From contig CANIEU010000008.1 of the NCBI GenBank assembly GCA_947466585.1, positions 30,797-94,796 of the forward strand: a stretch of DNA of 64,000 bases. Reading direction: 5' to 3'. The stretch is from Fibrobacterota bacterium (lineage in GTDB: Bacteria; Fibrobacterota; Fibrobacteria; UBA11236). Under the pieces are notes generated by a model that had not been told where the DNA came from, did not search any database, and worked only from the letters and a program-made list of their open reading frames with translations. The position numbers and the translations under genes are program-made. Of this stretch, positions 20,680-63,759 are shown in pieces (position 1 is the stretch's first letter; each line of letters begins with the position of its first letter).

Positions 20680-20819
20680 AAATGATCAATGCTCAATGAG
20701 CAATGCTCAGGAAATAACAAGGGTGTCTTAAATTCGGCTCGCTTGCTGTAGAATCAGCGAGGCGTTCCGCAGGGTTCGGTTGAAAATTGATCATTGCTCA
20801 TTGAGCATTGATCAATACA
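20680..20819. repeat. E1: inverted arrays of tandem heptamers (CAATGNN / CATTGNN) around an 86-nt spacer
   Basis: Left AAATGAT CAATGCT CAATGAG CAATGCT (20680-20707). Right AATTGAT CATTGCT CATTGAG CATTGAT (20785-20812). 23-nt perfect complement 20683-20705 vs 20792-20814. Confidence 0.85.
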
Positions 20820-21222
20820 TTCCTCTCTGAATCACCACGATCTCCGGTTCTTTCGGCTTCTCGGGGCGCGGGGGGCGGTTGGGGTTGCCGCCGTTCTGAC
20901 CTTGGCCTCTGGAACCGTTCTGGCCCTTCTCGCCTCTATCGGTTCTTTCGCCCTTCTCGCCTTTCTCACCATTCCCCTCTTCCTTGGGGCGGGCTTCGCG
21001 CACGCTGATGGCGCGTCCCATGAGGTCGGCACCGGCCAAGGCTTCGATGGCCTTGCGACCCTCTTCCTCATTGGGCATCTCGACGAACCCGAACCCGCGC
21101 GAGCGGCCGCTGAGGCGGTCGCGGATGATGCGGGCGGATTCCACCGTGCCGTGCGCGGCAAACGCCTCTTGCAAGGCTTCGTCGGTGGCGGTGTACGAGA
21201 TGTTGCTGACGTAGATGTTCAT
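20812..21222 (-). CDS. RRM-type RNA-binding protein with Gly/Glu/Lys/Arg-rich tail
   Basis: MNIYVSNISY (RNP-2), RGFGFVEM (RNP-1). AAGGAA 6 nt upstream of ATG 21222. 136 aa. Confidence 0.88.
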   Translation of the reverse strand: MNIYVSNISYTATDEALQEAFAAHGTVESARIIRDRLSGRSRGFGFVEMPNEEEGRKAIEALAGADLMGRAISVREARPKEEGNGEKGEKGERTDRGEKGQNGSRGQGQNGGNPNRPPRPEKPKEPEIVVIQRGMY

Positions 21223-21505
21223 CCGCATTTCCTTGTTCGGGAGCCGGTGCAGGCGTTTTGAGACATGATGGAGGACATTATGGAAAAAAGGGCGTTTCGG
21301 CCGCAAGGGCGGGCGATTCCAAAAAAATGGCCTGACCGGAGTCCAAAATATAACCCGAATCGCAGGTTGATTGGCCCCGACCTTTTTTCCGCGGCTTTCT
21401 TGGCCTTCGAATGCCCTGCATTTCCGGAGAGAAGGGTATTTTTACGGGCCTACGACGATCGTCTCCGACCGGTTTTCGCCGGTTTCCTCCAGCCCGAAAC
21501 GCACC

Positions 21506-23092
21506 ATGGCCAATCTCTTCCTCGGTCTCGACTGTTCCACCCAAAGCTTCACGGCCTTGCTCCTCGAACAGACCATTCCCGGCGACCCGACTTCGACCCG
21601 CATTCTGCTGGAGCGCAGCCTCAACTTCGACGAACACTTCCCCGAATTCGGTACGCGCAACGGCGTGATCCCGGGCAAGAACGGCGAAGTGCATACGCCG
21701 CCGCAGCTGTGGGTGCGCGCACTCGAAGAGGCGCTCACGGTGCTACAAAAGCAGGGGGTTCCGCTCGACCAGGTGGCGGCCATCGGATTCTCGGGCCAGC
21801 AACACGGTTCGGTTTACCTCAACGCGGCAGCCGACAAGGCCCTCGCCGCACTCGACGGTTCCAAGGCGCTCGCGCCGCAACTCGACTTCGTGTACTCGCG
21901 CAAGACCTCGCCGATCTGGATGGATTCCAGCACTTCCGCGGAGTGCGCCGAAATCACCGCTGCGCTCGGCGGCAGCGATGCCGTTTGCGCGCTGACCGGC
22001 TCGAAAGCCTTTGAGCGTTTCACCGGCCCGCAGATCCGCAAGTTCTACAAGACCGAGCCCGAGCATTATCAGGCCACGGCGCACATATGCCTCGTCTCGA
22101 GTTTCATTCCCTCCTTGCTTGCAGGCAAGATCGTCCCGATCGATCCGGGAGACGGCGCGGGCATGAACCTGATGGATATCGCGCGCCGCCAGTGGAGCCA
22201 TGCCGCGCTCGAGGCCACCGCGCCCGGCCTGTCGTCCAAGCTGTTGCCGGTGCTCGAGTCGGATCAAGTGGCCGCGACCATTTCGCCTTACTTCGTGAAG
22301 CGCTTCGGCTTCTCGCCCGCCTGCAAAATCCTGCCCGGCACGGGCGACAACCCCGCCAGCTTGGTTGGCCTCGGTCTCGTTTCGGGCGGCGCGCTCGGCA
22401 TTTCGCTGGGCACCAGCGACACGCTCTTCGCCTACATGAACGCCGTGTGCACCGATCCCACCGGTGCCTCGCACGTGTTCGGCAGCCCCACGGGCGGCTA
22501 CATGGCGATCTCCGTGTACAAGAACGGCAGCCTCGCGCGCGAGGCCGTGCGCCAGCGCCACGCGCTCACTTGGGAACAGTTCTCCGACATTCTCGGCCGC
22601 ACGCCTCCGGGCAACAACGGCGCGGCGATGCTGCCCTACTTCGGCACCGAGATCGTGCCGCACGTGCAGAAGCCCGGCGCGCAGCGTTACGGTTTCGCCG
22701 AAGGCGATGCGGACGCGGAAGTGCGCGCAGTGGTGGAAGCGCAGATGACCAGCATGCTCGTGCATGCGGAGTGGATGGGCGAAAAGCCGAGACGCATCCA
22801 GGCCACGGGCGGTGCGTCGAACAACCGCGAGATTCTGCAGATCATGGCCGACGTGTTCGGCGTACCGGTGATGCGTCAAGAGACCTCGAACTCCGCGGCG
22901 CTCGGTGCCGCAGTGTGCGCGCAGCATGCGGCCTTGCGCGAAGCGGGAACCCCGGCTTCGTTCGAATCGCTGACCCTGCCGCACGTGAAGGCGACCTTCA
23001 CCCTTCAGCCGAACCCGAAAAACACGGCGGCGTATGCGAAGTTCGCCAAGTTGTATCGTGAGAAAGAAACGGCGTACGTAGCGACGTTGTAA
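21506..23092 (+). CDS. xylB: FGGY-family carbohydrate kinase, xylulokinase-like
   Basis: MANLFLGLDCSTQS N-terminus, GFSGQQHGSV, PGTGDNPASLVGLG, ATGGASNNREILQIMADVFG. The upstream part of the track ORF has no support. Confidence 0.8.
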   Translation: MANLFLGLDCSTQSFTALLLEQTIPGDPTSTRILLERSLNFDEHFPEFGTRNGVIPGKNGEVHTPPQLWVRALEEALTVLQKQGVPLDQVAAIGFSGQQHGSVYLNAAADKALAALDGSKALAPQLDFVYSRKTSPIWMDSSTSAECAEITAALGGSDAVCALTGSKAFERFTGPQIRKFYKTEPEHYQATAHICLVSSFIPSLLAGKIVPIDPGDGAGMNLMDIARRQWSHAALEATAPGLSSKLLPVLESDQVAATISPYFVKRFGFSPACKILPGTGDNPASLVGLGLVSGGALGISLGTSDTLFAYMNAVCTDPTGASHVFGSPTGGYMAISVYKNGSLAREAVRQRHALTWEQFSDILGRTPPGNNGAAMLPYFGTEIVPHVQKPGAQRYGFAEGDADAEVRAVVEAQMTSMLVHAEWMGEKPRRIQATGGASNNREILQIMADVFGVPVMRQETSNSAALGAAVCAQHAALREAGTPASFESLTLPHVKATFTLQPNPKNTAAYAKFAKLYREKETAYVATL

Positions 23093-23127
23093 TTCCGGAA
23101 GCCACGTACGTGGCGACGTTGTAATTC
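23073..23127 (+). repeat. 32-nt-period tandem duplication of the xylB 3' end
   Basis: CGTACGTAGCGACGTTGTAATTC (23073-23095, contains the xylB stop TAA 23090-23092) repeated as CGTACGTGGCGACGTTGTAATTC (23105-23127), 22/23 identical. Confidence 0.85.
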
Positions 23128-23165
23128 GCACGTGTAAATTCCGTGCGCGGAGATGTTTGAAGAGA

Positions 23166-23194
23166 GGGGTGGGCGAAAGCCTGCCCCTTTTTTT
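23166..23194 (+). terminator. rho-independent terminator after xylB
   Basis: GGGGTGGGC-GAAA-GCCTGCCCC (9-bp stem incl. two G-U pairs, GNRA loop) followed by T7. Confidence 0.8.
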
Positions 23195-23204
23195 ATCGAA
23201 CGGA

Positions 23205-23516
23205 TTATGGGAGCGGGCGAAAGCTTGCGAGCCACTCCATCGCCCCCGCCAATGGCGCCGCTTCCAACTTGCGCGGACGCCGCTGCGCATCACGCCCGCG
23301 CGACACCAGCCCCGCCTCTTCCAGCACCTTGAGATGTTTTGAGATGGCGGGCTGACTCAGCTCGAAGGGCTCCGCGAGTTCGGCCACCGAAACCAAACCC
23401 TCCAACAAACGCGCGAGAATCGCCCGGCGCGTCGGATCGGACAAGGCTGCGAAAATCGCATCCAACGGGTCGGGAGCGGGGTTGCCGTAGGAATGTCCAT
23501 ATCCAAATGGTTGCAT
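23205..23516 (-). CDS. ArsR/SmtB-family transcriptional regulator (no cysteines)
   Basis: ALSDPTRRAILARLLEGLVSVAELAEPFELSQPAISKHLKVLEEAGLV winged-HTH signature. 103 aa, contains no Cys. Confidence 0.88.
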   Translation of the reverse strand: MQPFGYGHSYGNPAPDPLDAIFAALSDPTRRAILARLLEGLVSVAELAEPFELSQPAISKHLKVLEEAGLVSRGRDAQRRPRKLEAAPLAGAMEWLASFRPLP

Positions 23517-23721
23517 AGCCTAATAGTAATATTATGGTCGATAGCTTCGCAGAAACACAATTTTTCGGCCCTCCCTGCGGTTTTTCCCGTATTCGCCCCC
23601 GGCGACGCAGGACCGATGCCCGGAGTCCCGAACCCGGGGCGGCCCGCGAAGCAACATCGACCACACTCCGCTGCAATCCCCGTGCAACACCGCCCGGCTA
23701 CTCTATGACCTGTTCGCCGGA

Positions 23722-24624
23722 ATGTCTCCGGGAAGAACGAATCAAAGTAGGCCGGCCATGTCTCAAATGCTGCGCACCGCACCCCTTTCTGCACCCGTCG
23801 CTCCCGTTCTTCCGCTGCCTGTACCCGCCGAACTGGAGTCGGCCTTCGCCGATTATCCGCGCCATGCGGAAGGCATTCCCCCGATGGTTCTGGAGCGCGG
23901 CGAATACCGTTTGCACTTCGCCACCACTCCGCTCGAACTCGACGAAATTCTGCGTTTGCGCTACGACGTGTACAATCTCGAACTCGGCGAAGGCTTGGAA
24001 GAGTCGGCGCGTACGGGACGCGATGCGGACGCCTTTGATGCACAATGCCACCACTTGCTCGTGCGTCACAAAGACAGCGGCGAGTGCGTCGGCACCTACC
24101 GCCTGCAAACCGCGGCCATGGCGCGCACGGGATGCGGGTTCTACACCGATCAGGAGTTCCGCGTTGCGGATCTGCCCGAGTCCATCCGCGAGGAGGCGGT
24201 GGAGGTGGGACGTGCATGCATCGGCCGCGCGCACCGCAACGGCCAGGTGCTGCACCTGCTGTGGAAGGGCCTCGCGAACTATCTGCTCTGGAACAACAAG
24301 CGCCACTTGTTCGGCGCCTGCTCGCTGGCGAGCACCGATCCCATCGAAGGCATCGCGCTGTATCGCGAGCTTTCGGCCAACGGCAGCCTGCATCCCGAGA
24401 TCCGCGTGGAGCCGCGCGCCGGCTGGGAATGCCGCCTCGGCGATGCGATCCCCGTGGGCACGGTGGCGCCCGAGATTCCGCGTCTGCTGCAAGGCTACCT
24501 GAGTTTGGGCGGCAGCGTGTGTGGCGAGCCCGCGCTCGATCGCGCTTTCAAGACCATCGACTACCTCGTGCTCCTCGACGTGGAAGCGATGCCGGCAGGC
24601 GTGTTCCGCCGTTTCGTTTCGTGA
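23722..24624 (+). CDS. olsB: GNAT-fold N-acyltransferase, OlsB-like (aminolipid synthesis)
   Basis: YRLHFATTPLELDEILRLRYDVYNLELGEG, VGRACIGRAHRNG, LLQGYLSLGGSVCGEPALDRAFKTIDYLVLLD; resembles ornithine/amino-acid acyl-ACP N-acyltransferases. Followed by a PlsC-type acyltransferase. Alternative start ATG 23758. Confidence 0.7.
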   Translation: MSPGRTNQSRPAMSQMLRTAPLSAPVAPVLPLPVPAELESAFADYPRHAEGIPPMVLERGEYRLHFATTPLELDEILRLRYDVYNLELGEGLEESARTGRDADAFDAQCHHLLVRHKDSGECVGTYRLQTAAMARTGCGFYTDQEFRVADLPESIREEAVEVGRACIGRAHRNGQVLHLLWKGLANYLLWNNKRHLFGACSLASTDPIEGIALYRELSANGSLHPEIRVEPRAGWECRLGDAIPVGTVAPEIPRLLQGYLSLGGSVCGEPALDRAFKTIDYLVLLDVEAMPAGVFRRFVS

Positions 24625-24631
24625 GCTCGTT

Positions 24632-25597
24632 GTGGCTGAAACGGTGATCGCCACGCTGCGCGGCAGCTTGCGTGCCGCGGGATTCGTCTTGTGGACGCTC
24701 GCGGTCGGCGGCGCGTGGCTGTGCGTTCGAATGTTCCTGCGCAAGAGTGACCGCGCCGCGCGTGCGGCAGGCGGGGCGATGACGCTGCACCTTTGGTCGC
24801 GCGGATTGTGCCGGTTGCTGGGCCTGCGCGTGAAGGTGACGGGCGAGGCCTGTCGCGGGCCCGCGCTGCGTGTCGGGAACCATCGCGGTTATCTCGATGT
24901 GATCGTACTCTCCTCCGTGTCGCCGGCGCTCTTCGTTTCAAAGGACGATTTGGCCACATGGCCCGTACTCGGGTATTTGGGCGCGTCGGTGGGCACGCTG
25001 TTTCTCGATCGCACGCGGCCGCGCGCCGTGGCGGAAACAGGTGCGGCCATGTCGGAGCTCTTCGCCCTGCAACAATCGGTGATCGTGTTTCCGGAAGGGA
25101 CGACTACCGCTGACGACGGCACCGGCGCCGCATTGGCGCCGTTTCATTCCTCGCTGTTCGAACCCGCCCTGCGCGGCGACGTGGCCGTGCAGGCGGTAGC
25201 CCTCACCTTCGCAGGCCGCACGGGGAATGCGGGAGATTCTGCGGATGCCGCGGATCTCGCCACCTGGACGGGCGACGCGACTTTTCTGCCGCATCTGTGG
25301 CGATTGTTTTGCGCGCGCGGACTTGAGGTGCGGGCGATTTTTCGCGAACCGGTACGAGGCTTGACCGATCGGCGCGCCGCGGCGGATGATGCGCGGGAAT
25401 GGATTCGCGCAACCCTTTTAAACGGGATGAGCGAACGAGTCGGCCGGAAACCAGCGGCGCACGGCATCGGCCACGGAGCCGGTTTCGTGCGCGGCATCCC
25501 GCACGAACTGCGGCGCCTCGGCGATCGCCACCGCGCGACCGGCTTCGCGCAACAGGGGAAGGTCGTTGGCCGAATCGCCGATCGCCACGGCGCCTGA
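24632..25597 (+). CDS. olsA: lysophospholipid (PlsC-family) acyltransferase, OlsA-like
   Basis: NHRGYLD (HX4D) and VIVFPEGTT motifs. GTG 24632 is 8 nt after the olsB stop. The last ~180 nt overlap the convergent HAD gene. Confidence 0.7.
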   Translation: MAETVIATLRGSLRAAGFVLWTLAVGGAWLCVRMFLRKSDRAARAAGGAMTLHLWSRGLCRLLGLRVKVTGEACRGPALRVGNHRGYLDVIVLSSVSPALFVSKDDLATWPVLGYLGASVGTLFLDRTRPRAVAETGAAMSELFALQQSVIVFPEGTTTADDGTGAALAPFHSSLFEPALRGDVAVQAVALTFAGRTGNAGDSADAADLATWTGDATFLPHLWRLFCARGLEVRAIFREPVRGLTDRRAAADDAREWIRATLLNGMSERVGRKPAAHGIGHGAGFVRGIPHELRRLGDRHRATGFAQQGKVVGRIADRHGA

Positions 25598-26269
25598 CGC
25601 GCCCTCGACAGATAGGCCGAGGCGTTCGCCCAGCCGTCGCGCGCCCGCGAACTTCGATACGCCGCGCGGAGTGATCTCCAGCATGTAGTCGGCGTAGTAG
25701 GTGTTCTTGATTAACGCCGTTTCGAACGGCAGGCCCGCAAGCGCGTTCTGCGCTCGCGACAGCTCGGCTTCGGAACCCAGCAGGATCAACTCCACCACGG
25801 CGCGACCTTCCAGTTCGGCATAGTCGGTGAGCAAGGTGCAATAGCCGTCGTTCTTGGCGGTAAAGTCGCCGTTGCGCAGGCTGAGCCGACGGTGGTAGAC
25901 GTCGGGACCGCCGTCGGGCACGTAGGCTAGCGCGAGCGGATCCCAGCCCAAGGTGTCGAGCGCAGTGGCGGCGGCGGCGATGGACCCCGGATCGAATCCT
26001 TCGTGATGCAGCAACGTGCGGGTTTTCAAATCCTTGATCACGGCGCCGTTGTTGATGATGGCGTAGTCGACCAGATCCCACAACTCGAGTCGGTCGAGCA
26101 CACGCTTGAGCGTGGTCCAGCGGCGCCCGGTGGCGAGCACGATGGGAACACCTTGCGCCTTGAGCGTTTCGAGGGCGGCGCGGTTTGCATCGAGAAGATT
26201 GTTGTCGTGGTCGAGCAAGGTGCCGTCGACATCGGTGATGAACCAGGAGAAGGAGGGGCAGGAAGGCAT
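25418..26269 (-). CDS. Cof-type HAD-IIB hydrolase
   Basis: FITDVDGTLL, LATGRRW, AIGDSANDLPLL. ATG 26269 chosen; the longer track ORF would translate the heptamer array. Confidence 0.85.
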   Translation of the reverse strand: MPSCPSFSWFITDVDGTLLDHDNNLLDANRAALETLKAQGVPIVLATGRRWTTLKRVLDRLELWDLVDYAIINNGAVIKDLKTRTLLHHEGFDPGSIAAAATALDTLGWDPLALAYVPDGGPDVYHRRLSLRNGDFTAKNDGYCTLLTDYAELEGRAVVELILLGSEAELSRAQNALAGLPFETALIKNTYYADYMLEITPRGVSKFAGARRLGERLGLSVEGASGAVAIGDSANDLPLLREAGRAVAIAEAPQFVRDAAHETGSVADAVRRWFPADSFAHPV

Positions 26270-26279
26270 GGTGGGGCAG

Positions 26280-26402
26280 ACGGTAGTAGGTGGACGGTAG
26301 ACGGTAGAAAAACACATAAAACCACGCTTGGAGTGGGCTTAAGAACCCTGCGGGTGGACCTTATTCCCTACCGTCTACCTACTACCGTCTACCGTCTATC
26401 TT
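26280..26402. repeat. E2: inverted heptamer arrays (ACGGTAG / CTACCGT) in the HAD-arfB divergent region
   Basis: Left ACGGTAG TAGGTGG ACGGTAG ACGGTAG (26280-26307). Right CTACCGT CTACCTA CTACCGT CTACCGT CTATCTT (26368-26402). 60-nt spacer centred on GGGCTTAAGAACCC. Confidence 0.9.
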
Positions 26403-26408
26403 TCTCTC

Positions 26409-26759
26409 ATGCCCCCGATCCTACTTCCCGAAGACGACGACGCGCTTCTCGCCGAGTGCGACTTCGAAGCGCATCGCGCCTCGGGCAAGGGCGGCCAGCA
26501 TATCAACAAGACCGACAGTGCGGTGCGGCTGCATCATCGCCCCACGGGCATCACCGTCACGAGTCAGGAATCGCGCAGCCAGTGGCAGAACCGGATGTCG
26601 TGCCTGGAGAAGATTCGCGAGAAGGTAACGGCCCTCAACTTTGTCGCCAAACCGCGCAAGCCCACGAAGAAATCCCGATCCGCAAAACGGAACATCCTCG
26701 AGGAAAAGGCCAAGCATTCCGCGAAGAAGAAAACGCGTTCGTCACGGGATTGGGAATAG
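26409..26759 (+). CDS. arfB: alternative ribosome-rescue factor / peptidyl-tRNA hydrolase ArfB
   Basis: GGQ motif in [25 protein letters not shown], basic C-terminal tail ([30 protein letters not shown]). Confidence 0.85.
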
Positions 26760-26870
26760 GGCAACACAGCAACACAACAGCACAACAATAAAGGCATTCC
26801 AATCAATCCATGCTTTTCGCTTTATTGCGCTTGTGTTCTATTGCTGTGTTGTTGTGATGTTGTATTGAAA
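26760..26870. repeat. E3: inverted arrays of tandem 8-nt CA-rich / TG-rich units between convergent genes
   Basis: Left GGCAACAC AGCAACAC AACAGCAC AACAATAA (26760-26791). Right TTGTGTTC TATTGCTG TGTTGTTG TGATGTTG TATTGAAA (26831-26870). Imperfect ~30-bp complementarity. Confidence 0.75.
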
Positions 26871-26899
26871 CTCAATTAGTCCGGTTTGATGTCCATTCC

Positions 26900-27679
26900 T
26901 TAAAGTTTCCCGGAAAAATGGTACGCCCACAATCCGAGATACTCGTGCAGGGCCACGCCGGTCGCATTGAGGCCTCCCGCCGAGGGAATCAGATCGAATA
27001 CCTTCGCGGGCGTGCCGGTCTCCGAAAGAAAATCGGTGGGTGCGGGATGCACGATGAAACCCTGCTTGCGGAAGGTGGCCGCGGCGCGCGGCATGTGGGA
27101 CGCCGAAGTCACCAGCAGGATTTCTTTTTTGAGATGCTGCGCATCGAAGAGCGCGCGGGTTTTTTCGGCATCGTCGGCGGTGGTGGTCGTTCCCGGTACG
27201 CCGCGCAAGGCTGATTCGGGGATGCCGAACAACTCGTGTAACGTTTTAACGTACAGATCCGCCTCACTCCCCGGTGCGTTGGTGAGAAAAGGGATGTAGC
27301 CGCCGGTGGCGACCACGAGCGGGGCATGCCCCTGTTTCCACAACCGCGCCGCATGCAACAGGCGATCGCCCGCCGCATTGGTCTCGGGATAGACACGCGG
27401 CGCGACCATGGGCGCCATGCCTCCGCCGAGCAGCACGATGGCCGCGGCGTTGGGGTTCGCGAGCAAGGGCGGGTTGCGGCGTTCGAGCCCCCACAGGAGG
27501 CGGTTGGCGACGCGGGTGCTGCCGGCCGTGTAAAGCACGGTGGCGACCACCAAGGCGAGCAGCCCGGCCAGTCGGGCGCCCTTGCGAAAGGCGAACCAGG
27601 CGGTGAGCAGGCAGAGCAAAAACGCCAGGCCCACGGGAGACAATAGGGCGGGCACGACTTTGGAAATGACCAGGAGCAT
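26900..27679 (-). CDS. YdcF-family (DUF218) protein
   Basis: N-terminal TM segments, AIVLLGGG, GDRLLHAARLWKQGHAPLVVATGG, LLVTSASHMPRAAATF. ATG 27679 chosen. Confidence 0.8.
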   Translation of the reverse strand: MLLVISKVVPALLSPVGLAFLLCLLTAWFAFRKGARLAGLLALVVATVLYTAGSTRVANRLLWGLERRNPPLLANPNAAAIVLLGGGMAPMVAPRVYPETNAAGDRLLHAARLWKQGHAPLVVATGGYIPFLTNAPGSEADLYVKTLHELFGIPESALRGVPGTTTTADDAEKTRALFDAQHLKKEILLVTSASHMPRAAATFRKQGFIVHPAPTDFLSETGTPAKVFDLIPSAGGLNATGVALHEYLGLWAYHFSGKL

Positions 27680-27689
27680 TGGGAAATAG

Positions 27690-27807
27690 TAGGTAGTCGT
27701 TAGACGGTAGTAGGTAGTAGGTAGTGAAAACAGGAAAACCGGAATCTCGAGATCACCTAAATACCCTTTTTGCGTTCCGCTACCGTCCACCGACTACCGT
27801 CTACCGT
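27690..27807. repeat. E4: inverted heptamer arrays (TAGGTAG/ACGGTAG and CTACCGT) in the ydcF-aroC divergent region; same family as E2
   Basis: Left TAGGTAG TCGTTAG ACGGTAG TAGGTAG TAGGTAG (27690-27724). Right CTACCGT CCACCGA CTACCGT CTACCGT (27780-27807). 55-nt spacer with central ATCTCGAGAT palindrome. Confidence 0.9.
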
Positions 27808-27832
27808 CTCCTGTGTTTTTATCTTCCCCCTC

Positions 27833-28927
27833 ATGTCCAGCCAATTCGGGTCCTTGTTCAAAATCGCCACCTTCGGCGAAAGCCACGGCCACGCCGTGGG
27901 CGTGGTGCTTGACGGCTGCCCCAGCGGGCTGGCCATCACAGAGGCCGACATCCAGGCAGACCTCGACCGTCGCCGCCCGGGCCAAAACCGCCTGACCACG
28001 CCGCGCAAAGAGGCCGACACCGTCCGCATTCTTTCTGGCCTGTTCGACGGCCGCACCACGGGCACGCCGATCGCGATGGTGGTGGAAAACACGGACCAAC
28101 GTTCGCACGATTACGGCGACATGCAGACCCTGTACCGCCCGTCGCATGCGGACTTCACTTACGATCTCAAGTACGGGTTCCGCGACTTCCGCGGCGGGGG
28201 ACGTTCCTCTGCGCGCGAAACCATCGGTCGCGTGGCGGCCGGCGCTGTGGCCCGCAAACTGTTGCGTGAAGCCTGCGGCACCGAGATCCTCGCCTACGTC
28301 TCCCAGGTCGCGGACGTCGAAACGACTATCGATCCTCTCACGGCCACGCTGGAACAAGTGGAAGCCTCGCTGGTGCGCTGCCCCGACCCCGAAGCTTCGG
28401 CGCGCATGGAAGCCGCCATCGACGCCGCGCGCAAGGATCAAGACAGCGTGGGCGGGGTGATCCAGCTCGCAATCAAAACCGCGCCCGGTGGCATCGGCGA
28501 ACCGGTGTTCCACCGGTTGGAGGCTGAGTTGGCGCGCGCGTTCCTCTCGCTGCCCGCTACCAAGGGGTTCGAGATCGGCAGCGGCTTCGCAGGCACGCGC
28601 CTGCGCGGCAGCGCCCACAACGATTTGTTCCATGGCCCCGCAGGCCACATCGGCACCGACACCAACCGCTCCGGCGGCGTGCAGGGCGGCATCACCAACG
28701 GCGAGCCGATTTTGTGCCGCGTGGCCTTCAAGCCCACGGCGACGATCTCGCAGCCGCAAAAGACGGTGGACAAGAACGGCAACGAAGCCGTGCTCAACGC
28801 CAAAGGACGCCACGATCCGTGCGTGCTCCCGCGTGCGGTGGTATTGGTCGAAACGATGGCCGCGCTGGTGCTGGCGGATTTGTTTCTCGAACAACGCGCC
28901 CGCCACGGGTTGTTCCCGGCACGCTGA
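27833..28927 (+). CDS. aroC: chorismate synthase
   Basis: [59 protein letters not shown] 27833. Confidence 0.93.
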
Positions 28928-29948: not shown

Positions 29949-30428
29949 CTAGTTTCGACGCGTTTTCCAGTATTCATCAAAAAGCGCGTACTTCGCCTCT
30001 TCGGCCGACGGGTACATGCCCTTGAAGAACTTGTTATCGATGCGGCACGACCACAAGCCGTTCTGGAATTTAACGGGGAACACGCCCATGTTGACCCCTT
30101 CCACGTTGACCACCCAGTTGTCGCGCACGGAGAGGTACCAGTGGCGCGCGAGCCATTCGTCACGCGCAGCGCTTTTGTTGCGGATGCCCCGCTCCACGCG
30201 GCGCGGGTTCGCTTCGTCGCCGGTCATTTTTTCGGCGCAGGAGACGCATACGCCCAGCACTTCATCGAAGTTGTCGTGCTCCATGATGTGCACAAAGCGG
30301 ATGGTCACTTCTCCGCACATTTCGCAGACGATGGTCTTTTGACCGGTGTGCTTTTCCAGTAGGTCGGCGACTTCCATGCAGCGCCAGTCTTCCCGGGGCA
30401 CTTCGGGATTATCGATCATTCCGGGCAT
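29949..30428 (-). CDS. hypothetical Zn-ribbon protein with AP2-like C-terminal domain
   Basis: CEMC...CVSC four-Cys pattern. C-terminal GLWSCRIDNKFFKGMYPSAEEAKYALFDEY resembles AP2/HNH-associated DNA-binding domains (GxWxxxI...G.Y.s.eEA..A.D). No family recognised with certainty. Confidence 0.55.
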   Translation of the reverse strand: MPGMIDNPEVPREDWRCMEVADLLEKHTGQKTIVCEMCGEVTIRFVHIMEHDNFDEVLGVCVSCAEKMTGDEANPRRVERGIRNKSAARDEWLARHWYLSVRDNWVVNVEGVNMGVFPVKFQNGLWSCRIDNKFFKGMYPSAEEAKYALFDEYWKTRRN

Positions 30429-30547
30429 GTTTGGTTTCGAGAGAGGGGTTTCGGGTCAGAAAGTGAACGTCGGTGAAGATGAAATTTACACGAACCGCCG
30501 TACTTCCGGCGCCTACACACGGATGGCAAAAAATATTTCTCCGAATT

Positions 30548-30563
30548 TGTGACAGCGGTCACA
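30548..30563. promoter_or_regulatory. candidate operator palindrome upstream of hicAB
   Basis: TGTGAC-AGCG-GTCACA, perfect 6-bp arms, ~90 nt upstream of the hicA ATG. Confidence 0.3.
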
Positions 30564-30651
30564 GATTTTGGATTTGAATCTCCGACCGCATTTCCATTAT
30601 TCCCGGAATCACTTTTTCCAGGTTGCCATATGCAACTCATAGGTTGTATCT

Positions 30652-30849
30652 ATGTCCTGGTCTGGCAAGCAATTGGTCCGCCTGCTCGAAGCGAACGGGT
30701 GGATCTTGGATCGTATTCAGGGGAGCCACCATATCATGGAAAAACCTGGCTATCGCCCCGTCATCGTGCCCATGCATGGAAACAAGGACATTCAGCCTCA
30801 TTTCGCCAAGAGCATTCTCAAGCAAGCGGGACTCAAGGATATGTTTTAA
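30652..30849 (+). CDS. hicA: type II toxin-antitoxin system HicA toxin (mRNA interferase)
   Basis: 65 aa, KQLVRLLEANGWILDRIQGSHHIMEKPG...VPMHGNKDI typical HicA. Confidence 0.9.
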   Translation: MSWSGKQLVRLLEANGWILDRIQGSHHIMEKPGYRPVIVPMHGNKDIQPHFAKSILKQAGLKDMF

Positions 30850-31265
30850 TGGAATACTTTGCGCGCATCCGGAAAGTGAAAGGGGAGCACTTCGTTTACT
30901 TTCCCGACATGCCGAACGTCTTGACCTATGGATTTACTCACGAACACGCATTGGAAATGGCCGAGGAGGCATTGAATGCCGTTCTGGAAGTGGATTTTGC
31001 CCGCGGCTTTGTACTTCCCTCTGCCACAAATTACGCAGGGAAACGGGCGTATTTCCCCATTTCGGTTTTGCCTCACATCGCCTTGGCTTATGAGTTGAAG
31101 GCTTTGCGCAAGAAGGAAACCCAGGTGGGCATCGCAAAGAAGCTGGGAATCAGCTATCAGGCCTACCAGAAACTTGAGAATCCACGCAAATGCAACCCGA
31201 CTGTGAAGACTTTGGAGAAGATCGGAGTGGCGTTGGGGAAACGGTTGGTGGTGGGTTTTCGGTGA
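30849..31265 (+). CDS. hicB: type II toxin-antitoxin system HicB antitoxin with XRE-type HTH
   Basis: ATG in TAATG overlap with the hicA stop. N-terminal HicB fold (YFARIRKVKGEHFVYFPDMPNVLTYGFTHEHALEMAEEAL). C-terminal HTH (TQVGIAKKLGISYQAYQKLENP). Confidence 0.88.
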   Translation: MEYFARIRKVKGEHFVYFPDMPNVLTYGFTHEHALEMAEEALNAVLEVDFARGFVLPSATNYAGKRAYFPISVLPHIALAYELKALRKKETQVGIAKKLGISYQAYQKLENPRKCNPTVKTLEKIGVALGKRLVVGFR

Positions 31266-31321
31266 CTCGAAATTCCGCTGCGGACCGAATATTCTAATCG
31301 TACTGTTATTATCATAACCTT

Positions 31322-32191
31322 ATGAACATGGTCCGATCTCGGCGGCGCTGGCTTTTTGGATTCGGAATGGTGTTGCTTGGCGCCTTCCTTTCCGGGTGTG
31401 CAGCACGGTACATCGAACGCGCCGACGCGCAGATCGCACAAGTTCCAGTCATTAACGGCGCAGTCCCTCAGGAAGCGGGCAGTGCGGTTTTTGTAGGCGC
31501 ACATGCAAACAGGTCAAACACTCATTCGCTGAGGACAACCACCAGAAACCGCCAACCTTACAACTATGGCGTCACGTGGAACCCGACTTCAATGGGGTTT
31601 AACTTCGGTGCACGCATCAATGCGAGTGACGGCAATCCGGGAAAAGTTTCCCTGATTGATCTGTTCGCTTATTTCGATGGAGATCCGCGAAGGTTTGCGA
31701 AAAATAATGCGGAGCTTATCGGCGCTGGAGTCACGACCTCCTACCAGGACTTCCGAATCCGATTGGCCACCGGAATCGGACGGCACCAGTATGACATCAA
31801 GACAATCCTAGTTAATGACCCTTCGTCGGAGCTACGCTCGCAAAATTGCGAAATCACCATTGATACTTCAGCCGGGAACCGTGCCTCACCGCTCTTCGTT
31901 TGGAGTGCCACCATCTGGCCTTCACCTTACGAAAAGGGTTCCTTCGCATTCGCGCCCTATATTGGCCTCCAGTATGGGCTCCAGCTTATTTCAGGCCAAA
32001 GTGCAACCTACGGAGGCTCACTTTTACTGCGGAATCCCATTTTCACGGTAGGCATTCGAAGCGATTGGAGTTCGACCGCAATCGTAGCAGAGGTTCACGG
32101 TAAGGGCATTTATAACGCGCATGGAGGAACTTCCGTCTCCACCGCGGAAATACGGTTAGAACAATCGCTCAGAATTCACAAAAAACGTTAA
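31322..32191 (+). CDS. hypothetical lipoprotein
   Basis: Signal peptide with lipobox MVLLGAFLSGC; no recognisable family; AT-richer than surroundings. Confidence 0.6.
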   Translation: MNMVRSRRRWLFGFGMVLLGAFLSGCAARYIERADAQIAQVPVINGAVPQEAGSAVFVGAHANRSNTHSLRTTTRNRQPYNYGVTWNPTSMGFNFGARINASDGNPGKVSLIDLFAYFDGDPRRFAKNNAELIGAGVTTSYQDFRIRLATGIGRHQYDIKTILVNDPSSELRSQNCEITIDTSAGNRASPLFVWSATIWPSPYEKGSFAFAPYIGLQYGLQLISGQSATYGGSLLLRNPIFTVGIRSDWSSTAIVAEVHGKGIYNAHGGTSVSTAEIRLEQSLRIHKKR

Positions 32192-32203
32192 CAATCATCG
32201 CGC

Positions 32204-35192
<2,989 letters not shown>

Positions 35193-46497: not shown

Positions 46498-46969
46498 GGT
46501 AATCCTTCTTGCCGCCGGTCTTCTCCAGCAATCGCACCGACCGGATTTCGATGCCGTGCGACAGCGCCTTGCACATGTCGTACAGTGTCAGAGCGGCCAC
46601 AGTGGCACCCGTGAGCGCTTCCATTTCCACCCCCGTGCGATGGCTGGTGGATACGGAGCAGACGATGCGGACGCACTCACCTTCGCCTTCCTGCATGGCG
46701 ATCGAGATCTGGCAATCATCGAGCGGCAGGGAGTGGCACAGCGGAATCAGTTGGTCGGTTTTCTTCGCGGCCATAACGCCTGCCAGAGTCGCCGTGTGGA
46801 AAACCGGACCCTTGGGGCTGCGGATGTCGCCGTTCGTAAATTGCGCCCGCACGCTTTCGGGCAGCCACACCAAGGCCTCCGCGCGTGCGGTGCGGCGTGT
46901 CACCGCCTTGCCGCCGATATCGACCATTGAGGGAGCGCCGCTCGCATTGAGGTGGGAGAAGAGATTCAT
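46487..46969 (-). CDS. moaC: cyclic pyranopterin monophosphate synthase
   Basis: MVDIGGKAVTRRTA, KKTDQLIPLCHSLPL, TGVEMEALTGATVAALTLYDMCKA. Confidence 0.92.
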   Translation of the reverse strand: MNLFSHLNASGAPSMVDIGGKAVTRRTARAEALVWLPESVRAQFTNGDIRSPKGPVFHTATLAGVMAAKKTDQLIPLCHSLPLDDCQISIAMQEGEGECVRIVCSVSTSHRTGVEMEALTGATVAALTLYDMCKALSHGIEIRSVRLLEKTGGKKDYRVD

Positions 46970-46996
46970 GAACCTTTAGCTCCCGGGCATACGGAA

Positions 46997-47126
46997 AAAT
47001 ATGAAATATGAAAGGGAGACTACTTCGCGCATACTCTCAACACGCGTACGATTTAAAAAATCCCATTTCGGAAATGCATTTTGTTTCTGCGTTACTTTCA
47101 TATTTCCGATTTTATATTTCATCTTT
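46997..47126. repeat. E5: inverted AT-rich heptamer arrays (AAATATG / CATATTT) between moaA and moaC
   Basis: Left AAATATG AAATATG AAAGGGA (46997-47017). Right TTACTTT CATATTT CCGATTT TATATTT CATCTTT (47092-47126). 12-nt perfect complement GAAATATGAAAG 47003-47014 / CTTTCATATTTC 47095-47106. Spacer contains the palindrome CATTTCGGAAATG. Confidence 0.8.
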
Positions 47127-47130
47127 CTCT

Positions 47131-59739: not shown

Positions 59740-60378
59740 TTACGCCTTGGGCGAAGCTTCCTGGATCAGTTGATCCACGAGAGCACGGTTCTTGGTGTCG
59801 TCGAGGTTCTGACGAATCAGCTTCTCGGCGATGCCGATCGACAGTTCCGCCGTGGTCTTCCGCAGCTCGGCCACCGCGGCGCGGGTCTGCGCCTCGATCT
59901 CCTGCGATGCGGAAGCGATGATGCGCCGCTTTTCTTCTTGCGCGGTCTGCTCTAGGCTCTTCTTCAGCGCCTCGCCCGATTCGCGGGCGGTCTGAAGTAC
60001 CGCGTTCGCTTCGGCGCGCGCTTCGGCTATCAGACGGGATTGCTCCTGCGCCAGGCGGGCGTTCTCGGCCTGAATGCGCGCGGCCTGCTCCAGGCTTTCG
60101 CGCACAGTGGTCTCACGTGCGTCGAGCGCTTCGAGAATCGGCGCCCATGCGTACTTCTTCAGAATGAGAAGAAGCAACACGAACACGACGATGGCCCAAA
60201 TGCCCACGCCGGGATCGAAGCGCAACAGGGGAGAGCCCTCTTGCACTGCATGCTCGGTTCCATGCCCGACTTCTGCAGCGGAGGCAACGGTTGTTGCAAC
60301 GGAATCCGCAGCTCGTGCCGCGCCCGCGAGGACGGTCAAAGAAAGGGATGCGAACGTCCCGAACGAAAGTCGTTTCAT
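59740..60378 (-). CDS. atpF: F0F1 ATP synthase subunit b with N-terminal extension
   Basis: TM helix IWAIVVFVLLLLILKKYAWAPI followed by a long Ala/Glu/Arg coiled coil. ~45-aa signal-peptide-like N-terminal extension. ATG 60378. Confidence 0.85.
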   Translation of the reverse strand: MKRLSFGTFASLSLTVLAGAARAADSVATTVASAAEVGHGTEHAVQEGSPLLRFDPGVGIWAIVVFVLLLLILKKYAWAPILEALDARETTVRESLEQAARIQAENARLAQEQSRLIAEARAEANAVLQTARESGEALKKSLEQTAQEEKRRIIASASQEIEAQTRAAVAELRKTTAELSIGIAEKLIRQNLDDTKNRALVDQLIQEASPKA

Positions 60379-60443
60379 GCGAAAATCCTTTTTAACACGC
60401 GGCACCCGGAGGATACCGCGCTTTGAATCGCGTGAACCGCGGT

Positions 60444-60719
<276 letters not shown>

Positions 60720-61595: not shown

Positions 61596-62044
61596 TTGGC
61601 CAGCAGCCCCGGGTTGCGAACGATGTGCCGAATCTCGAAGGCCTGAAACACGACGTAGCCGGCCATGGCCGAGAACACGAAAGAATAGAGCGCCGGGCCG
61701 TGCGTCACGAGGCGGATGACGACCAGCATGACGATCGCCAAGAAGCTGAGGCGGGCGAACATCGAAAGCATAATGAGTTGGATCGGCTCGATGCCGAGAC
61801 GCAGCTTCAGGATTCCGACGGCGGCGAAGGCGTTCGCGGCCATCAGCAGAATTCCGGCTGCACTAAAACCCGCATGAAGCGACGGCCAAAACGTGGCCAG
61901 CAGCAAGGTGCCGGCACACAGGGCAAAGGCCGCAAGGCCAAGGGTTTTGGTAAAGGCGTTCAATGGTTTTTTTCCGGTGAGGAGCGGACCAAAATCCGCT
62001 TTCAGAACGGGCCGAAATAATAGCAAGACCCGCGCTGGATTCAA
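61592..62044 (-). CDS. atpI: ATP synthase protein I-like membrane protein
   Basis: Four hydrophobic helices directly upstream of and overlapping atpB. Start uncertain (track start is TTG 62044; alternative in-frame TTG further downstream). Confidence 0.6.
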   Translation of the reverse strand: MNPARVLLLFRPVLKADFGPLLTGKKPLNAFTKTLGLAAFALCAGTLLLATFWPSLHAGFSAAGILLMAANAFAAVGILKLRLGIEPIQLIMLSMFARLSFLAIVMLVVIRLVTHGPALYSFVFSAMAGYVVFQAFEIRHIVRNPGLLAK

Positions 62045-62176
62045 GTCAAAATGCGAATGAAAATCTAAAGAATGACAGCCAAAATCAGGGGCTTAACCGA
62101 GAATTCCTCATGATGAGCGGAAGAAGGTCGAGGTCTCGCCTGCAGGCCGTTCTCCGCTCGGGTTTCTCTGGTATTT

Positions 62177-62395
62177 TTACCCCTGCTTTTGGTCAAGATG
62201 CCGTACGATTCTGTAGACCGTCAGTGCCGAACCGGTGATTCCGACCAACGCGCCGCCCAGCGTGCCCCACGGTTGCAGGCCCCAGTGCTGGTCGATCCAT
62301 CGGCCCGCCAGCACGCCCCCGGTGATCCATCCGGCTAGCGAAACGCCCAGCGTCAATAAAATCCCGAGATCGGGGGGCAGCTTTGGAACGGGCAT
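62177..62395 (-). CDS. atpZ: AtpZ/AtpI-family small membrane protein (ATPase_gene1)
   Basis: 72 aa MPVPKLPPDLGILLTLGVSLAGWITGGVLAGRWIDQHWGLQPWGTLGGALVGITG, two helices, typical AtpZ. ATG 62395. Confidence 0.75.
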   Translation of the reverse strand: MPVPKLPPDLGILLTLGVSLAGWITGGVLAGRWIDQHWGLQPWGTLGGALVGITGSALTVYRIVRHLDQKQG

Positions 62396-62408
62396 CGAAG
62401 GGGGAGTC

Positions 62409-62750
62409 TCAGTCCCGCGAAGCATCCATCGAACAATTGCCCTGGAAGATGGCACCTTCCTGCACCACCAGCTCGCGGGCATGCAAATCGCCCTGCAACA
62501 CCGATTTCTCCTCCAGGACCAACTTCTCCTGCACGCGCACGTTGCCGTGAACGCGTCCCGCGAGCGCGGCAGAACGGCTGGCCACATCGCCCTCGATGCT
62601 GCCGGTGATGCTGAGCACCAAGGTGCCCCCCACCGAAACCGCGCCCTTGACCGCCCCTTCCACGCGCAAATCGTGCTCCACGGACATGTCTCCGTTGATG
62701 CGCGTTCCTTCGCCGATGAACGTCATGCTGGTGGCTGCGTGTTTGGACAT
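62409..62750 (-). CDS. bactofilin family cytoskeletal protein
   Basis: Repetitive beta-helix pattern IGEGTRINGDMSVEHDLRVEGAVKGAVSVGGTLVLSITGSIEGDV...GNVRVQEKLVLEEKSVLQGDL. Confidence 0.88.
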   Translation of the reverse strand: MSKHAATSMTFIGEGTRINGDMSVEHDLRVEGAVKGAVSVGGTLVLSITGSIEGDVASRSAALAGRVHGNVRVQEKLVLEEKSVLQGDLHARELVVQEGAIFQGNCSMDASRD

Positions 62751-62817
62751 GTGGTACCCCGGCTTCCCGTTCGACGTGTTGATTGGTTTCGACCGCTACC
62801 CAGAAAGGTTATGAGAC

Positions 62818-63630
62818 CTAATCCAGATAGGAGAGAGGGTCGACGGCCTTCCCCTTGAAGATAATTTCGAAGTGCAAGTGTGGACCCAAACTGCGCCCGG
62901 TATTCCCCACCACCCCGATCGGGTCGCCCTTGCCCACCTGGTCGCCCCGCTTCACCACGGCCCGCGCCAGATGACCGTACACGGTTTGGACCCCGTAATC
63001 GTGGTCGATCCGCACATATTGCCCCAAATCGTTGTCCCAGCCCTCTTCGATCACCAGTCCGCGCGCCGCACTCACTACCACGGCGTTGCCCTCGGCCATG
63101 ATGTCGATCCCGTCGTGGCGGATATCGGCCCCTCCGGTCGAGAATCGCTGGGTCACGATGCCCTTAACCGGCCAGATATTGGGCTTACGGTCCCGCGACA
63201 GGGAGGCATCGCGACTCTCGAGCCGGCGGTTGATGGTCTGAAGGTTTTCGAGCCAGGCCGAATCCTCCGCCCCCAAGGCCGTGGCACGGTCGTCTTCGGA
63301 GCCGCGCGGCGCAGGGGCCAAAAAGGCCTGTAAAATTCTGCGAATCGCCCTTTCCTTCTGAACCACGCCGGCGAGTTCGGTTTCCAACTGGGTCAGCTTC
63401 TGCTGCCGGTCGAGCAATTCCTGGTTGCGCAACGCCATATGGTTGGCCAGCAACATCTTCCCTTGGATCTGCGTCAACTTCACCGCGGCGAACCCGGCGG
63501 CGAACAGGGCGATCACGAAGGCGTAAAACAGGAATTCGAAAAAGGGCCGCCGCAGGCGGAAGGTCCACGCTTCGCCCGATCCTTCGGGCAGGATCTGGAT
63601 GGTGATGAAGCGTTTTTTACGAGGTGCCAC
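62818..63630 (-). CDS. M23 family metallopeptidase with N-terminal TM anchor and coiled coil
   Basis: HDGIDI, YGHLARAVVKRGDQVGKGDPIGVVGNTGRSLGPHLHFEI (HxH). GTG 63630. Confidence 0.88.
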   Translation of the reverse strand: MAPRKKRFITIQILPEGSGEAWTFRLRRPFFEFLFYAFVIALFAAGFAAVKLTQIQGKMLLANHMALRNQELLDRQQKLTQLETELAGVVQKERAIRRILQAFLAPAPRGSEDDRATALGAEDSAWLENLQTINRRLESRDASLSRDRKPNIWPVKGIVTQRFSTGGADIRHDGIDIMAEGNAVVVSAARGLVIEEGWDNDLGQYVRIDHDYGVQTVYGHLARAVVKRGDQVGKGDPIGVVGNTGRSLGPHLHFEIIFKGKAVDPLSYLD

Positions 63631-63674
63631 AGGAAGAAATTAGCTAAGACGCGCAGAGATGGTTAGGAAAGAGT

Positions 63675-63759
63675 GGACAGCTTATAGCGGACAGCTTTCC
63701 CTGTGGGCCCGACTTTGGGGTTTTGTTTTCGGCTGTTCGCTGTAAGCTGTCCGCTTCCG
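63675..63759. repeat. E6: inverted heptamer arrays (nnAYAGC / GCTGTnn) between parB and the M23 gene
   Basis: Left GGACAGC TTATAGC GGACAGC (63675-63695). Right GCTGTTC GCTGTAA GCTGTCC GCTTCCG (63732-63759). 20/24 complementarity between 63673-63696 and 63731-63754. Confidence 0.75.

Follow-up and report, generated by a model that had tools for sequence, protein, structure and literature searches.

Paired inverted arrays of heptanucleotide units in intergenic gaps of a Fibrobacterota bacterium: candidate slippage-driven repeats that in part may reiterate -10 boxes

It has been known since 1990 that heptanucleotide repeats occur in the intergenic regions of bacteria; scattered lineages have more of them than expected, and their origin and function are unsettled. 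A 64,000-nt stretch of a Fibrobacterota genome (contig CANIEU010000008.1, positions 30,797 to 94,796, analysed whole and hereafter called the window) raises this question in a particular form. Six of its intergenic regions, E1 to E6, carry two facing arrays of short tandem units around a spacer, and the unit differs among the regions. Are such pairs maintained as hairpins, spread as mobile sequences, or produced by a process that generates repeats? We give a probability of about 0.5 to the explanation that they are slippage-driven paired heptanucleotide repeats of the class described as long simple sequence repeats (LSSR) or short tandemly repeated repetitive sequences (STRR), that they partly reiterate -10 boxes, and that they are neither an RNA gene nor a transposable element. 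A useful fact for this question is that the unit sequence is swapped from species to species at one orthologous gap and the paired build persists.

We searched inverted repeats across the whole window, with arms up to 200 nt apart and without bias to E1-E6, and the six elements came out as its top-ranked short-range inverted repeats; all six loci named by the original prediction, which had been made by reading the letters, are present at the positions that it gave. The arms pair as follows.

E1, 20683-20709 with 20788-20814: 27 nt, 96% complementary, 78-nt spacer
E2, 26278-26307 with 26368-26397: 30 nt, 83% complementary (another register, 26 nt at 92%), 60-nt spacer
E3, 26762-26793 with 26820-26851: 32 nt, 78% complementary, 26-nt spacer
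E3, alternative pairing, 26770-26793 with 26844-26867: 83% complementary
E4, 27695-27729 with 27775-27809: 35 nt, 77% complementary, 45-nt spacer
E5, 46996-47014 with 47095-47113: 19-20 nt, 85-89% complementary, spacer of 80-96 nt
E6, 63672-63695 with 63732-63755: 24 nt, 88% complementary, 36-nt spacer

In E1, E2 and E4, Tandem Repeats Finder (TRF) called arrays of period 7 in either arm, with 4.1-5.6 copies, and in the arms of E3 it called period-8 arrays of 3.4 and 2.4 copies. E5 has just 2.4 copies, called in the left arm only, and E6 received no TRF call, its periodicity being weak or of 14 nt. Head-to-tail tandem arrays beyond chance length, whose units in the LSSR/STRR class measure 5-11 nt and typically 7 nt, are found in E1-E4 and are marginal in E5 and E6, which are the weakest members of the set. 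Every period-7 or period-8 array of at least 3.4 copies that TRF called in the 64 kb is an arm of E1-E4, and none is unpaired. The units are CAATGNN in E1, ACGGTAG/TAGGTAG in E2 and E4, CAACACAG, AAATATG in E5 and ACAGCNN in E6. The count of five unrelated unit sequences over six loci is therefore correct, as E2 and E4 share one GGTAG/CTACC family.

The architecture lies far above chance, as had been expected. A scanner that asked for two arms of 16 nt or more, matching at 14 or more positions, separated by 15-130 nt and equal in period (5-9 nt), found five loci in the window (E1-E5), compared with a mean of 0.01 and a maximum of 1 in 200 dinucleotide-preserving shuffles within local 150-nt blocks. 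The predicted RNA folds are likewise much more stable than those of shuffled sequences (z-scores of -8.5 for E1, -6.7 for E2, -4.2 for E3, -3.8 for E4 and -6.3 for E6), with the exception of E5 (z = -2.2), whose folding energy is matched by 5 of 200 shuffles; DNA hairpin energies are also significant against shuffles. That the pairs are chance similarities or assembly artefacts is extremely improbable and finds a foothold only in the weakness of E5, with its 2.4 units and its z-score of -2.2. Against it stand the scanner result, the identical sequence in five contigs from four samples, and the occurrence of the same build in many independent assemblies and phyla. For E1-E4 and E6 this explanation is refuted.

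To follow the elements among relatives, syntenic loci (designated L and a number) were gathered via DUF218 homologs and exact-protein look-ups; a metagenome scan with a DUF218 alignment gave few close relatives. It is evident from these loci that the elements evolve fast and unit by unit, being gained, lost and replaced among close relatives. In the gap between the HAD-hydrolase gene and the gene of an ArfB-like protein, which holds E2 in the window, the window carries ACGGTAG units, L006 TAGGTAG, L010 GAGCGGT-type, L012 GTTGTTG, L015 ACGAATT, L090 GTACCCG and L173 AAAAATC, and an array is absent from the same gap of L174. Similarly, E3 is missing in L006 and L170 (where the gap is 5 nt) and is represented by other units in L008, L009, L012 and L172, E4 is missing in L008 and L009, and the E1 position has ACAGC-type arms in L012 and nothing in L172, where the gap measures 3 nt. 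The gap orthologous to that of E5 bears (GAATGAA)x5 facing CATTCC-type units in L009. Moreover, over 2,294 nt the sole difference between L006 and L007 is the insertion or deletion of one 7-nt unit in one arm, which is direct evidence of unit-wise slippage. The unit-number polymorphism that had been proposed as a check was thus found in relatives, and the window's own population, represented by five identical contigs, shows no unit-number variation.

Some gaps of the relatives contain repeats of another kind. In L170 the E4 and E2 gaps (2197-2446 and 3583-3832) are each about 250 nt long and contain long non-tandem inverted repeats of one family (GTCGTTGGTGG... / ...CCTAAACACAAACA), not heptamer arrays. 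The HAD/ArfB gap of L009 (6369-6946) extends to 579 nt and contains two direct copies, about 110 nt each, of an unrelated sequence (...GCAGGGCATTCGTTGTCGA...CCACCCCTCTCCCT...GGGGATGGGGGCGGTTGGTGAGCCTGCCGAACCATGAGGGCTTTCGA).

The density of the build found by the scanner is 7.8 per 100 kb in the window, about 14 per 100 kb in close relatives, whose sampling is centered on one region, and 1.0 per 100 kb in other phyla (1.4 Mb), where most of the loci are cyanobacterial or from Chloroflexi; no element was found by the scanner in 92 kb of more distant Fibrobacterota. Among the arrays of period 5-9 that TRF called in the window and related Fibrobacterota loci, 20 of 41 have a called partner of the same period, and several further "single" arrays have a partner below the threshold. 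Cyanobacterial loci with the inverted tandem-unit build include L035 12676-12829, L048 6120-6223 and L061 6124-6228, with spacers of about 50-100 nt. With spacers of a few to about 15 nt, the build was also seen in a Candidatus Promineofilum (Chloroflexi) locus, L036 16454-16506, and on unassigned metagenome contigs that have similar units (L106 1040-1111, L124 2967-3088 and L134 2-69).

A second line of evidence links the arrays with the starts of genes. We surveyed 191 promoter-proximal genes of the window and of 15 close loci. In 50 of them (about 26%) the ATG is preceded, at a distance of 6-8 nt, by the end of a TAnnnT hexamer (consensus TAYCTT), with a sharp positional peak over a background of about one to two per position, and the TAYCTT box is usually followed by a C/T run (window examples at 26397-26402, 27820-27825, 27686-27691 on the minus strand and 18253-18258; others in loci L006-L174). 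The box precedes 49 of the 167 genes whose upstream gap is 40 nt or longer, compared with 3 of 38 operon-internal genes, and it excludes motifs of the Shine-Dalgarno (SD) type, which precede 1 of 49 boxed genes and 27 of 118 unboxed ones. Such a pattern is the accepted sequence signature of leaderless genes (Zheng et al. 2011, PMC3160421), and leaderless mRNAs are therefore predicted to be widespread in this Fibrobacteria lineage. The box is found before all three of the genes next to E2-E4 that encode the ArfB-like protein, DUF218 and chorismate synthase, and it is kept before the ArfB-like gene in the array-free orthologs L170, L172 and L009 and, as TATCTT, before the chorismate synthase gene in L006, L009 and L172.

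Six arrays, representing about five unit types, directly abut such a box. In every one of them the box heptamer keeps the phase of the array and matches most of the units upstream of it at 4-6 of 7 positions; the mean identity of box and unit is 3.75-5.25 in phase and about 1.7 out of phase. The right array of E2, for example, reads CTACCGT CTACCGT CTATCTT-tctctc-ATG, so that the box heptamer CTATCTT, identical to CTACCGT at 5 of 7 positions, is the last unit. Furthermore, start-proximal arrays read in the gene sense have more C than G in 12 cases, more G than C in none and are neutral in 3, whereas stop-proximal arrays have no bias; this polarity is expected if the arrays derive from the C/T-rich box and discriminator. 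The arms of E2 and E4 cover positions -15 to -50 of two divergent promoters and are probably reiterated -10-box heptamers in promoter DNA that is not transcribed. Two divergent promoters with similar boxes would give arrays of one family in opposite orientation, that is, an inverted pair, and the common unit family of E2 and E4 would be explained by the similar -10 boxes that both reiterate. A scan of 20000-28500 for sigma-70 consensus promoters did not exceed what shuffles predict, and none of the spacers contained a site. An origin of the units from SD or anti-SD sequences was rejected, as the units are not SD-like and the element-adjacent genes lack SD motifs.

All arms are intergenic, lying between called genes, and begin 0-35 nt from start or stop codons, and each element nearly fills its gap; the predicted abutment on start and stop codons thus stands, as does the range of contexts (tandem for E1, E5 and E6, divergent for E2 and E4, convergent for E3). 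Neighboring genes were named from Pfam hits on identical or orthologous contigs, and the M23 peptidase and ParB-like genes at E6 by reading of translations. E1 lies between the stop of a gene for an RRM RNA-binding protein and the start of a gene for a THUMP/RlmL-type methyltransferase, E2 between divergent genes for the HAD hydrolase and the RF-1-domain (ArfB-like) protein, E3 between the convergent ArfB-like and DUF218 genes, E4 between the divergent DUF218 and chorismate synthase genes, E5 in the moaA to moaC gap of a likely moaA-moaC operon, and E6 likely between the C-terminus of a ParB-like gene and an M23 peptidase gene. The parts are located as follows.

E1 left arm, (CAATGNN)x4, 20681-20709: start-proximal for the minus strand, upstream of the RlmL-type methyltransferase gene (start 20665); TRF and inverted-repeat search
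E1 spacer, 20710-20785: fully diverged between the window, L010 and L013 by alignment
E1 right arm, (CATTGNN)x4, 20786-20814: has within it the stop codon of the minus-strand RRM-protein gene (end at 20812)
E2 left arm, (AGACGGT / TAGGTGG)x4.4, 26278-26308: CTACCGT-type toward the HAD-hydrolase gene (minus strand, start about 26270)
E2 spacer, 26309-26367: without similarity to the centers of E4 or of the L006 element
E2 right arm, (CTACCGT)x4.4, 26368-26398, plus strand: continues straight into the -10-like box of the ArfB-like gene
TATCTT box, 26397-26402, plus strand: ends 6 nt before the ATG (26409) of the RF-1-domain/ArfB-like gene
E3 left arm, CA-rich 8-nt units x3.4, 26762-26793: begins 2 nt past the stop of the ArfB-like gene (26759)
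E3 right arm, TG-rich 8-nt units, 26836-26867: about 33 nt separate its end from the stop of the DUF218 gene (minus strand, 26900)
TACTAT box, 27686-27691, minus strand: its end is 6 nt from the start of the DUF218 gene (CAT, 27677-27679), and it keeps the phase of the E4 left arm
E4 left arm, (TAGTAGG / TAGACGG)x5.6, 27687-27725
E4 spacer, 27726-27774: its right part, CTTTTTGCGTTCCGC, is conserved with L006
E4 right arm, (CTACCGT)x4.3, 27775-27809, plus strand
TATCTT box, 27820-27825, plus strand: 10 nt past the E4 right arm, ends 7 nt before the chorismate synthase ATG (27833)
E5 left arm, (AAATATG)x2.4, 46994-47014: start-proximal for the minus strand, upstream of the moaC start at 46969
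E5 right arm, degenerate CATATTT-type units, 47095-47129: ends 1-2 nt before the moaA stop (47131, minus strand)
E6 left arm, GGACAGC TTATAGC GGACAGC, 63672-63695
E6 right arm, GCTGTTC GCTGTAA GCTGTCC, 63732-63755: about 32 nt from the stop of the ParB-like C-terminus, minus strand

If the paired arms were kept for the stem that they form, their units should be ordered as mirror images. We permuted the unit order in one arm and recomputed the best complementarity for 14 testable elements; the real order was no better than the permuted orders in 12 of the 14, and E1 and the element of L173 exceed them marginally. Arm lengths are also unequal within an element (3.3 and 6.3 units in L006, for example), and among the relatives there are unpaired arrays as well as one gap whose two sides carry different arrays. 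The sense and antisense strands reveal no consistent bias in folding energy or in the number of G-U pairs. Moreover, in the convergent gaps at L092 2385-2530 (ACAGC-type 7-mers) and L172 8653-8754 (GCAAAGATC-type 9-mers) the inverted arrays flank a canonical bidirectional intrinsic terminator, so that each transcript should end between the arms and carry only one of them. Judged by these comparisons the arms share a unit family and not a mirror order, and neither base-pair-level covariation nor stem maintenance was found. The slippable stem, which the original prediction had put forward as a selected feature, is not supported, given the unmirrored order, the differing arm lengths, the unpaired arrays and the lack of a consistent folding preference for the sense strand; it looks like a consequence rather than a conserved feature. 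The broader suggestion of a structural constraint or a repeat-generating process consequently survives in its second half, as the unit differs by species at an orthologous gap, and the constraint on the stem is unsupported.

These results could be explained by the following sequence of events, of which we infer the slippage and template-switch mechanics as well as any effect on expression. Each arm would be a tandem array that strand slippage has made and resized, seeded from local intergenic sequence, and it would grow until a stop codon, a -10 box, a terminator or other constrained sequence halts it. At promoters with a box the array would reiterate the box-containing heptamer, and the working box would be the last and best-kept unit. 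Where a second promoter is lacking, the second arm may be an inverted copy made by template switching between nearby arrays. Perhaps only the inverted configuration survives, because direct arrays around a short spacer would delete the spacer. Each gap would thereby gain a stem of 20-35 bp with several registers, which could form a DNA cruciform or, in read-through RNA, a hairpin, and the arrays would replace the DNA where a -35 region would sit. They act, if at all, probably as copy-number-tunable modifiers of promoter output or transcript ends. Effects on expression through the tuning of promoters by unit number, through read-through hairpins (such as E5 in the moa operon) or through cruciforms are plausible.

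Several observations weigh against this explanation. Units unlike the box (CAACAAC in L012 and the CA-rich unit of E3) are still common to both arms, and E1, E5 and E6, in tandem contexts, are inverted without a second promoter; such cases make an inverted-copy step necessary, which we infer rather than observe. No direct-repeat pairs were seen, which a deletion bias may explain. Selection on the transcript, in place of descent from the box, could be what the C-over-G polarity of start-proximal arrays reflects, leaderless transcription is a prediction made from sequence, and the sampling of relatives around a single syntenic region means that the contexts are not an unbiased sample. E1 also counts against it. 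In the comparison of window 20640-20680 and 20786-20831 with L010 8509-8654 and L013 8690-8845, the start-proximal arm and a few adjacent bases, including "ATCATTTCCC", are identical between the window and L010 at 35 of 35 nt. The adjoining gene shows 61% identity at 4-fold sites between the same two loci, so that 35 of 35 would be expected by chance at about 3×10−8. At least this arm is thus, on the alignment, under sequence constraint. The E1 units are small palindromes (TGAGCAnTGCTCA, TGATCA), and only they are self-palindromic among the units, which would suit a protein operator; the E1 arms could be a putative operator of this kind.

Among the other explanations, selected RNA hairpins have an experimental precedent in the (ATCTTTC)n 5′ untranslated region (UTR) hairpin of Haemophilus influenzae hmw1A (PMC12721329). 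Both arms would be transcribed, and the cis-acting stem would be cut by RNase III or would protect or occlude mRNA ends, repeat number tuning expression. The predicted 20-35-bp stems with their strongly negative z-scores agree with this, as do the abutment of arms on stop codons and the conservation of the E1 arms around a freely varying loop. E5 agrees as well: it lies in a likely operon and moaC has an SD-like AAAGG, so both of its arms are probably transcribed. At E2 and E4, however, the neighboring genes are predicted to be leaderless with an arm upstream of the -10-like box, so that neither mRNA would carry the hairpin and an RNA hairpin is unlikely there, and in L092 and L172 transcripts would end between the arms at bidirectional terminators. 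Since the divergent and terminator-flanking cases do not fit, and with unit order unmirrored, no consistent advantage of the sense strand in folding energy or G-U pairs, and gain, loss and replacement among close relatives, we consider selected RNA hairpins unlikely, although they are the main rival of our explanation. DNA-level devices, either arrays of protein half-sites flanking a promoter (looping or an operator cluster) or supercoil-driven cruciforms coupling or insulating promoters, would account for the E2 and E4 arms at -15 to -50 of two divergent promoters, for the significant DNA hairpin energies, and for the short palindromes of E1, which are kept far beyond neutral expectation around a center that is not, a pattern typical of operator sites. 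At least 10 unrelated unit families would nevertheless need equally many binding proteins, E3 occupies a convergent gap without promoters, and spacers of 26-100 nt would make cruciform extrusion kinetically unfavorable. Rapid loss and replacement also speaks against conserved operators except at E1, and it is largely because of E1 that we keep this doubtful explanation in view at all.

The arrays may alternatively be mutable promoter modules selected for leaderless genes, which we hold to be improbable. If this were true, -10-like heptamers 7 bp apart would form a copy-number-tunable decoy or landing pad for RNA polymerase upstream of the start box, and a mirrored array would make a symmetric bidirectional unit driving a divergent gene or antisense RNA. 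A free-living bacterium would then tune housekeeping genes by repeat variation in the style of contingency loci, and the long-unexplained excess of heptanucleotide repeats in bacteria would have a concrete origin. Non-autonomous mobile elements, whether transposable elements of the miniature inverted-repeat type (MITEs) with terminal inverted repeats or pairs resembling doublets of repetitive extragenic palindromes (REPs), called REPINs, moved by a Y1 transposase of the REP-associated tyrosine transposase (RAYT) type, are suggested by the size of about 90-150 nt, the terminal inverted arms, the intergenic location with presence and absence at orthologous sites, and the occurrence of one arm family at two loci per genome (E2 and E4) in the window, L006, L170 and L172. 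An IS200-like Y1 transposase gene (RAYT-like, Pfam PF01797, E = 4.7×10−6) is indeed found in relatives, at L172 16891-17481 and about L012 6987-7567. It is flanked there by ordinary small G+C hairpins (e.g., GGACGTGACGGCCGTCACGTCC) and not by heptamer arrays, however, and tblastn detected no Y1_Tnp homolog in the window. In an all-against-all BLAST of 25 elements from the window and relatives, non-orthologous elements resemble each other in the arms only and their centers are unrelated, and thus the elements are not MITE copies, in agreement with the original view that no single mobile sequence had spread. A visual reading of the flanks of E1-E6 found no direct repeats that could be target-site duplications, orthologous gaps free of arms are not shorter, and the arms are in phase with a resident -10 box. 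Mobility is therefore very unlikely, and slippage-driven repeats, partly seeded from promoter boxes, remain the explanation that we favor.

Known families were tested as well. No Rfam model matched at its gathering score in the whole window, as anticipated, and a scan of 20500-28000 at permissive E-values returned only sub-threshold miRNA-precursor models over E2 and E4, which are matched because a long hairpin is generic. A copy-and-paste element of the MITE kind was rejected on the unrelated centers. REP and REPIN were rejected because tandem arrays make up the arms, because the 64 kb contain 1-2 loci per family, and because self-palindromic units are confined to E1. An intrinsic terminator has a G+C-rich stem of 5-20 bp and a loop of 3-8 nt, then a T run; a scan of 20000-28500 found no such site at E1-E4, the loops of the elements measure 26-96 nt with no T run after them, and canonical intrinsic terminators are present elsewhere in the window. 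CRISPR arrays have direct repeats of 23-47 nt with unique spacers of similar length between them, and the 7-8-nt tandem units here have no spacers and form two inverted arrays. Integron attC sites were dismissed on context, the genes being syntenic housekeeping genes in mixed orientation. For annotation, a hairpin shape alone should not make such gaps noncoding RNAs, MITEs or terminators.

Other features of the window were seen along the way. A sub-threshold PrrB/RsmZ-like Rfam match (23 bits against a gathering score of 44, E = 0.04) lies at 23052-23193, just past an FGGY kinase gene, in a stretch that contains a direct repeat GCGACGTTGTAATTC x2 and a terminator. A period-9 tandem repeat of 5.6 copies at 20918-20967, within the coding sequence of the RRM protein, encodes a tail rich in Gly, Glu, Lys and Arg. 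A small open reading frame at 30651-30850 (MSWSGKQLVRLLEANGWILDRIQGSHHIMEKPGY...) resembles a HicA-type toxin and is a candidate by reading of its translation; it lies within an A+T-richer stretch, 30400-32240, whose composition is unlike its surroundings.

How do the elements relate to systems already described? REPs are near-identical palindromes present in hundreds per genome, each small, and are linked to a RAYT gene that they flank. The elements are like REPs, bacterial interspersed mosaic elements and REPINs in being extragenic and hairpin-forming, with inverted doublets that enclose a short spacer and lie between tandem, convergent or divergent genes; unlike them, they have tandem arrays as arms and 1-2 copies per family in 64 kb, and no RAYT is present in the window. 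A heptamer array that serves as a stem arm has been dissected by experiment only in hmw1A/hmw2A of H. influenzae, where an (ATCTTTC)n hairpin in the 5′ UTR is transcribed and cut by RNase III and mediates phase variation of a surface adhesin of this pathogen (Rapun-Araiz et al. 2025, PMC12721329). The likeness lies in a heptamer simple sequence repeat that serves as an arm of a long imperfect hairpin by a gene start, and in hmw the copy number varies and tunes expression. In hmw, however, one arm is the repeat and the other a G-rich stretch, whereas here both arms are arrays, the genes are housekeeping genes, and the E2 and E4 arms are probably not transcribed. Transcription of both arms as in the hmw 5′ UTR would accordingly be disfavored at E2 and E4, where a box lies between arm and ATG, and would be compatible with the sequence of E5.

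TAACTGA direct repeats upstream of start codons are reported from Beggiatoaceae, cyanobacteria and Bacteroidetes (MacGregor 2015, PMC4679880). Like the start-proximal arrays, they are heptamers in fixed orientation a few nucleotides from the start codons of genes that lack an SD and have no common function. They consist of one unit in direct repeats (with one indirect case) and are read as an mRNA binding site, whereas many units occur here, in inverted pairs that lie upstream of a -10 box predicted from sequence. In several bacteria heptamers make up the largest class of long simple sequence repeats, with polymerase slippage proposed as their origin (Mrazek 2007, summarised in PMC4679880), and the cyanobacterial STRR heptanucleotide repeats go back to 1990 (Mazel et al. 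1990, summarised in PMC4679880 and PMC4692102). The elements share with this class the 7-nt units, several families per genome, the intergenic location and the sporadic phylogenetic distribution. LSSR and STRR are usually described as single direct arrays in which pairing is not defining, whereas inverted pairs occur here, and the literature searched contained no report of such repeats in Fibrobacterota.

A close counterpart is found in Xanthomonas, where arrays of the intergenic heptamer GGGAATC mostly lie two by two, near each other and on opposite strands, and a genome has 70-75 such pairs (Rehm et al. 2015, PMC4692102). In both systems tandem 7-nt intergenic units form two arrays near each other on opposite strands. 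In Xanthomonas the array length varies between related genomes and the single or paired type is kept, with no strand preference in transcripts and an unknown function (PMC4692102). One G-rich, G-quadruplex-prone family per genome is present there, compared with at least five unrelated and mostly non-G-quadruplex families in 64 kb here; the G-quadruplex-forming GGGAATC is not among the units of E1-E6. The replacement of the unit between species at one orthologous gap also differs from Xanthomonas, and phasing with a -10 box is not reported there. The original prediction had recognised no known kind in these loci; this holds for Rfam motifs, REP, CRISPR and MITE, but the architecture is not new in kind, since inverted heptamer pairs are already described in Xanthomonas (PMC4692102). 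What the Fibrobacterota elements add is the phylum, the many unit families swapped rapidly at fixed gaps, the arms without mirror order and the in-phase -10-like box of predicted leaderless genes, and with these a specific hypothesis for bacterial heptanucleotide repeats, namely that they may be seeded from promoter boxes and resized by slippage.

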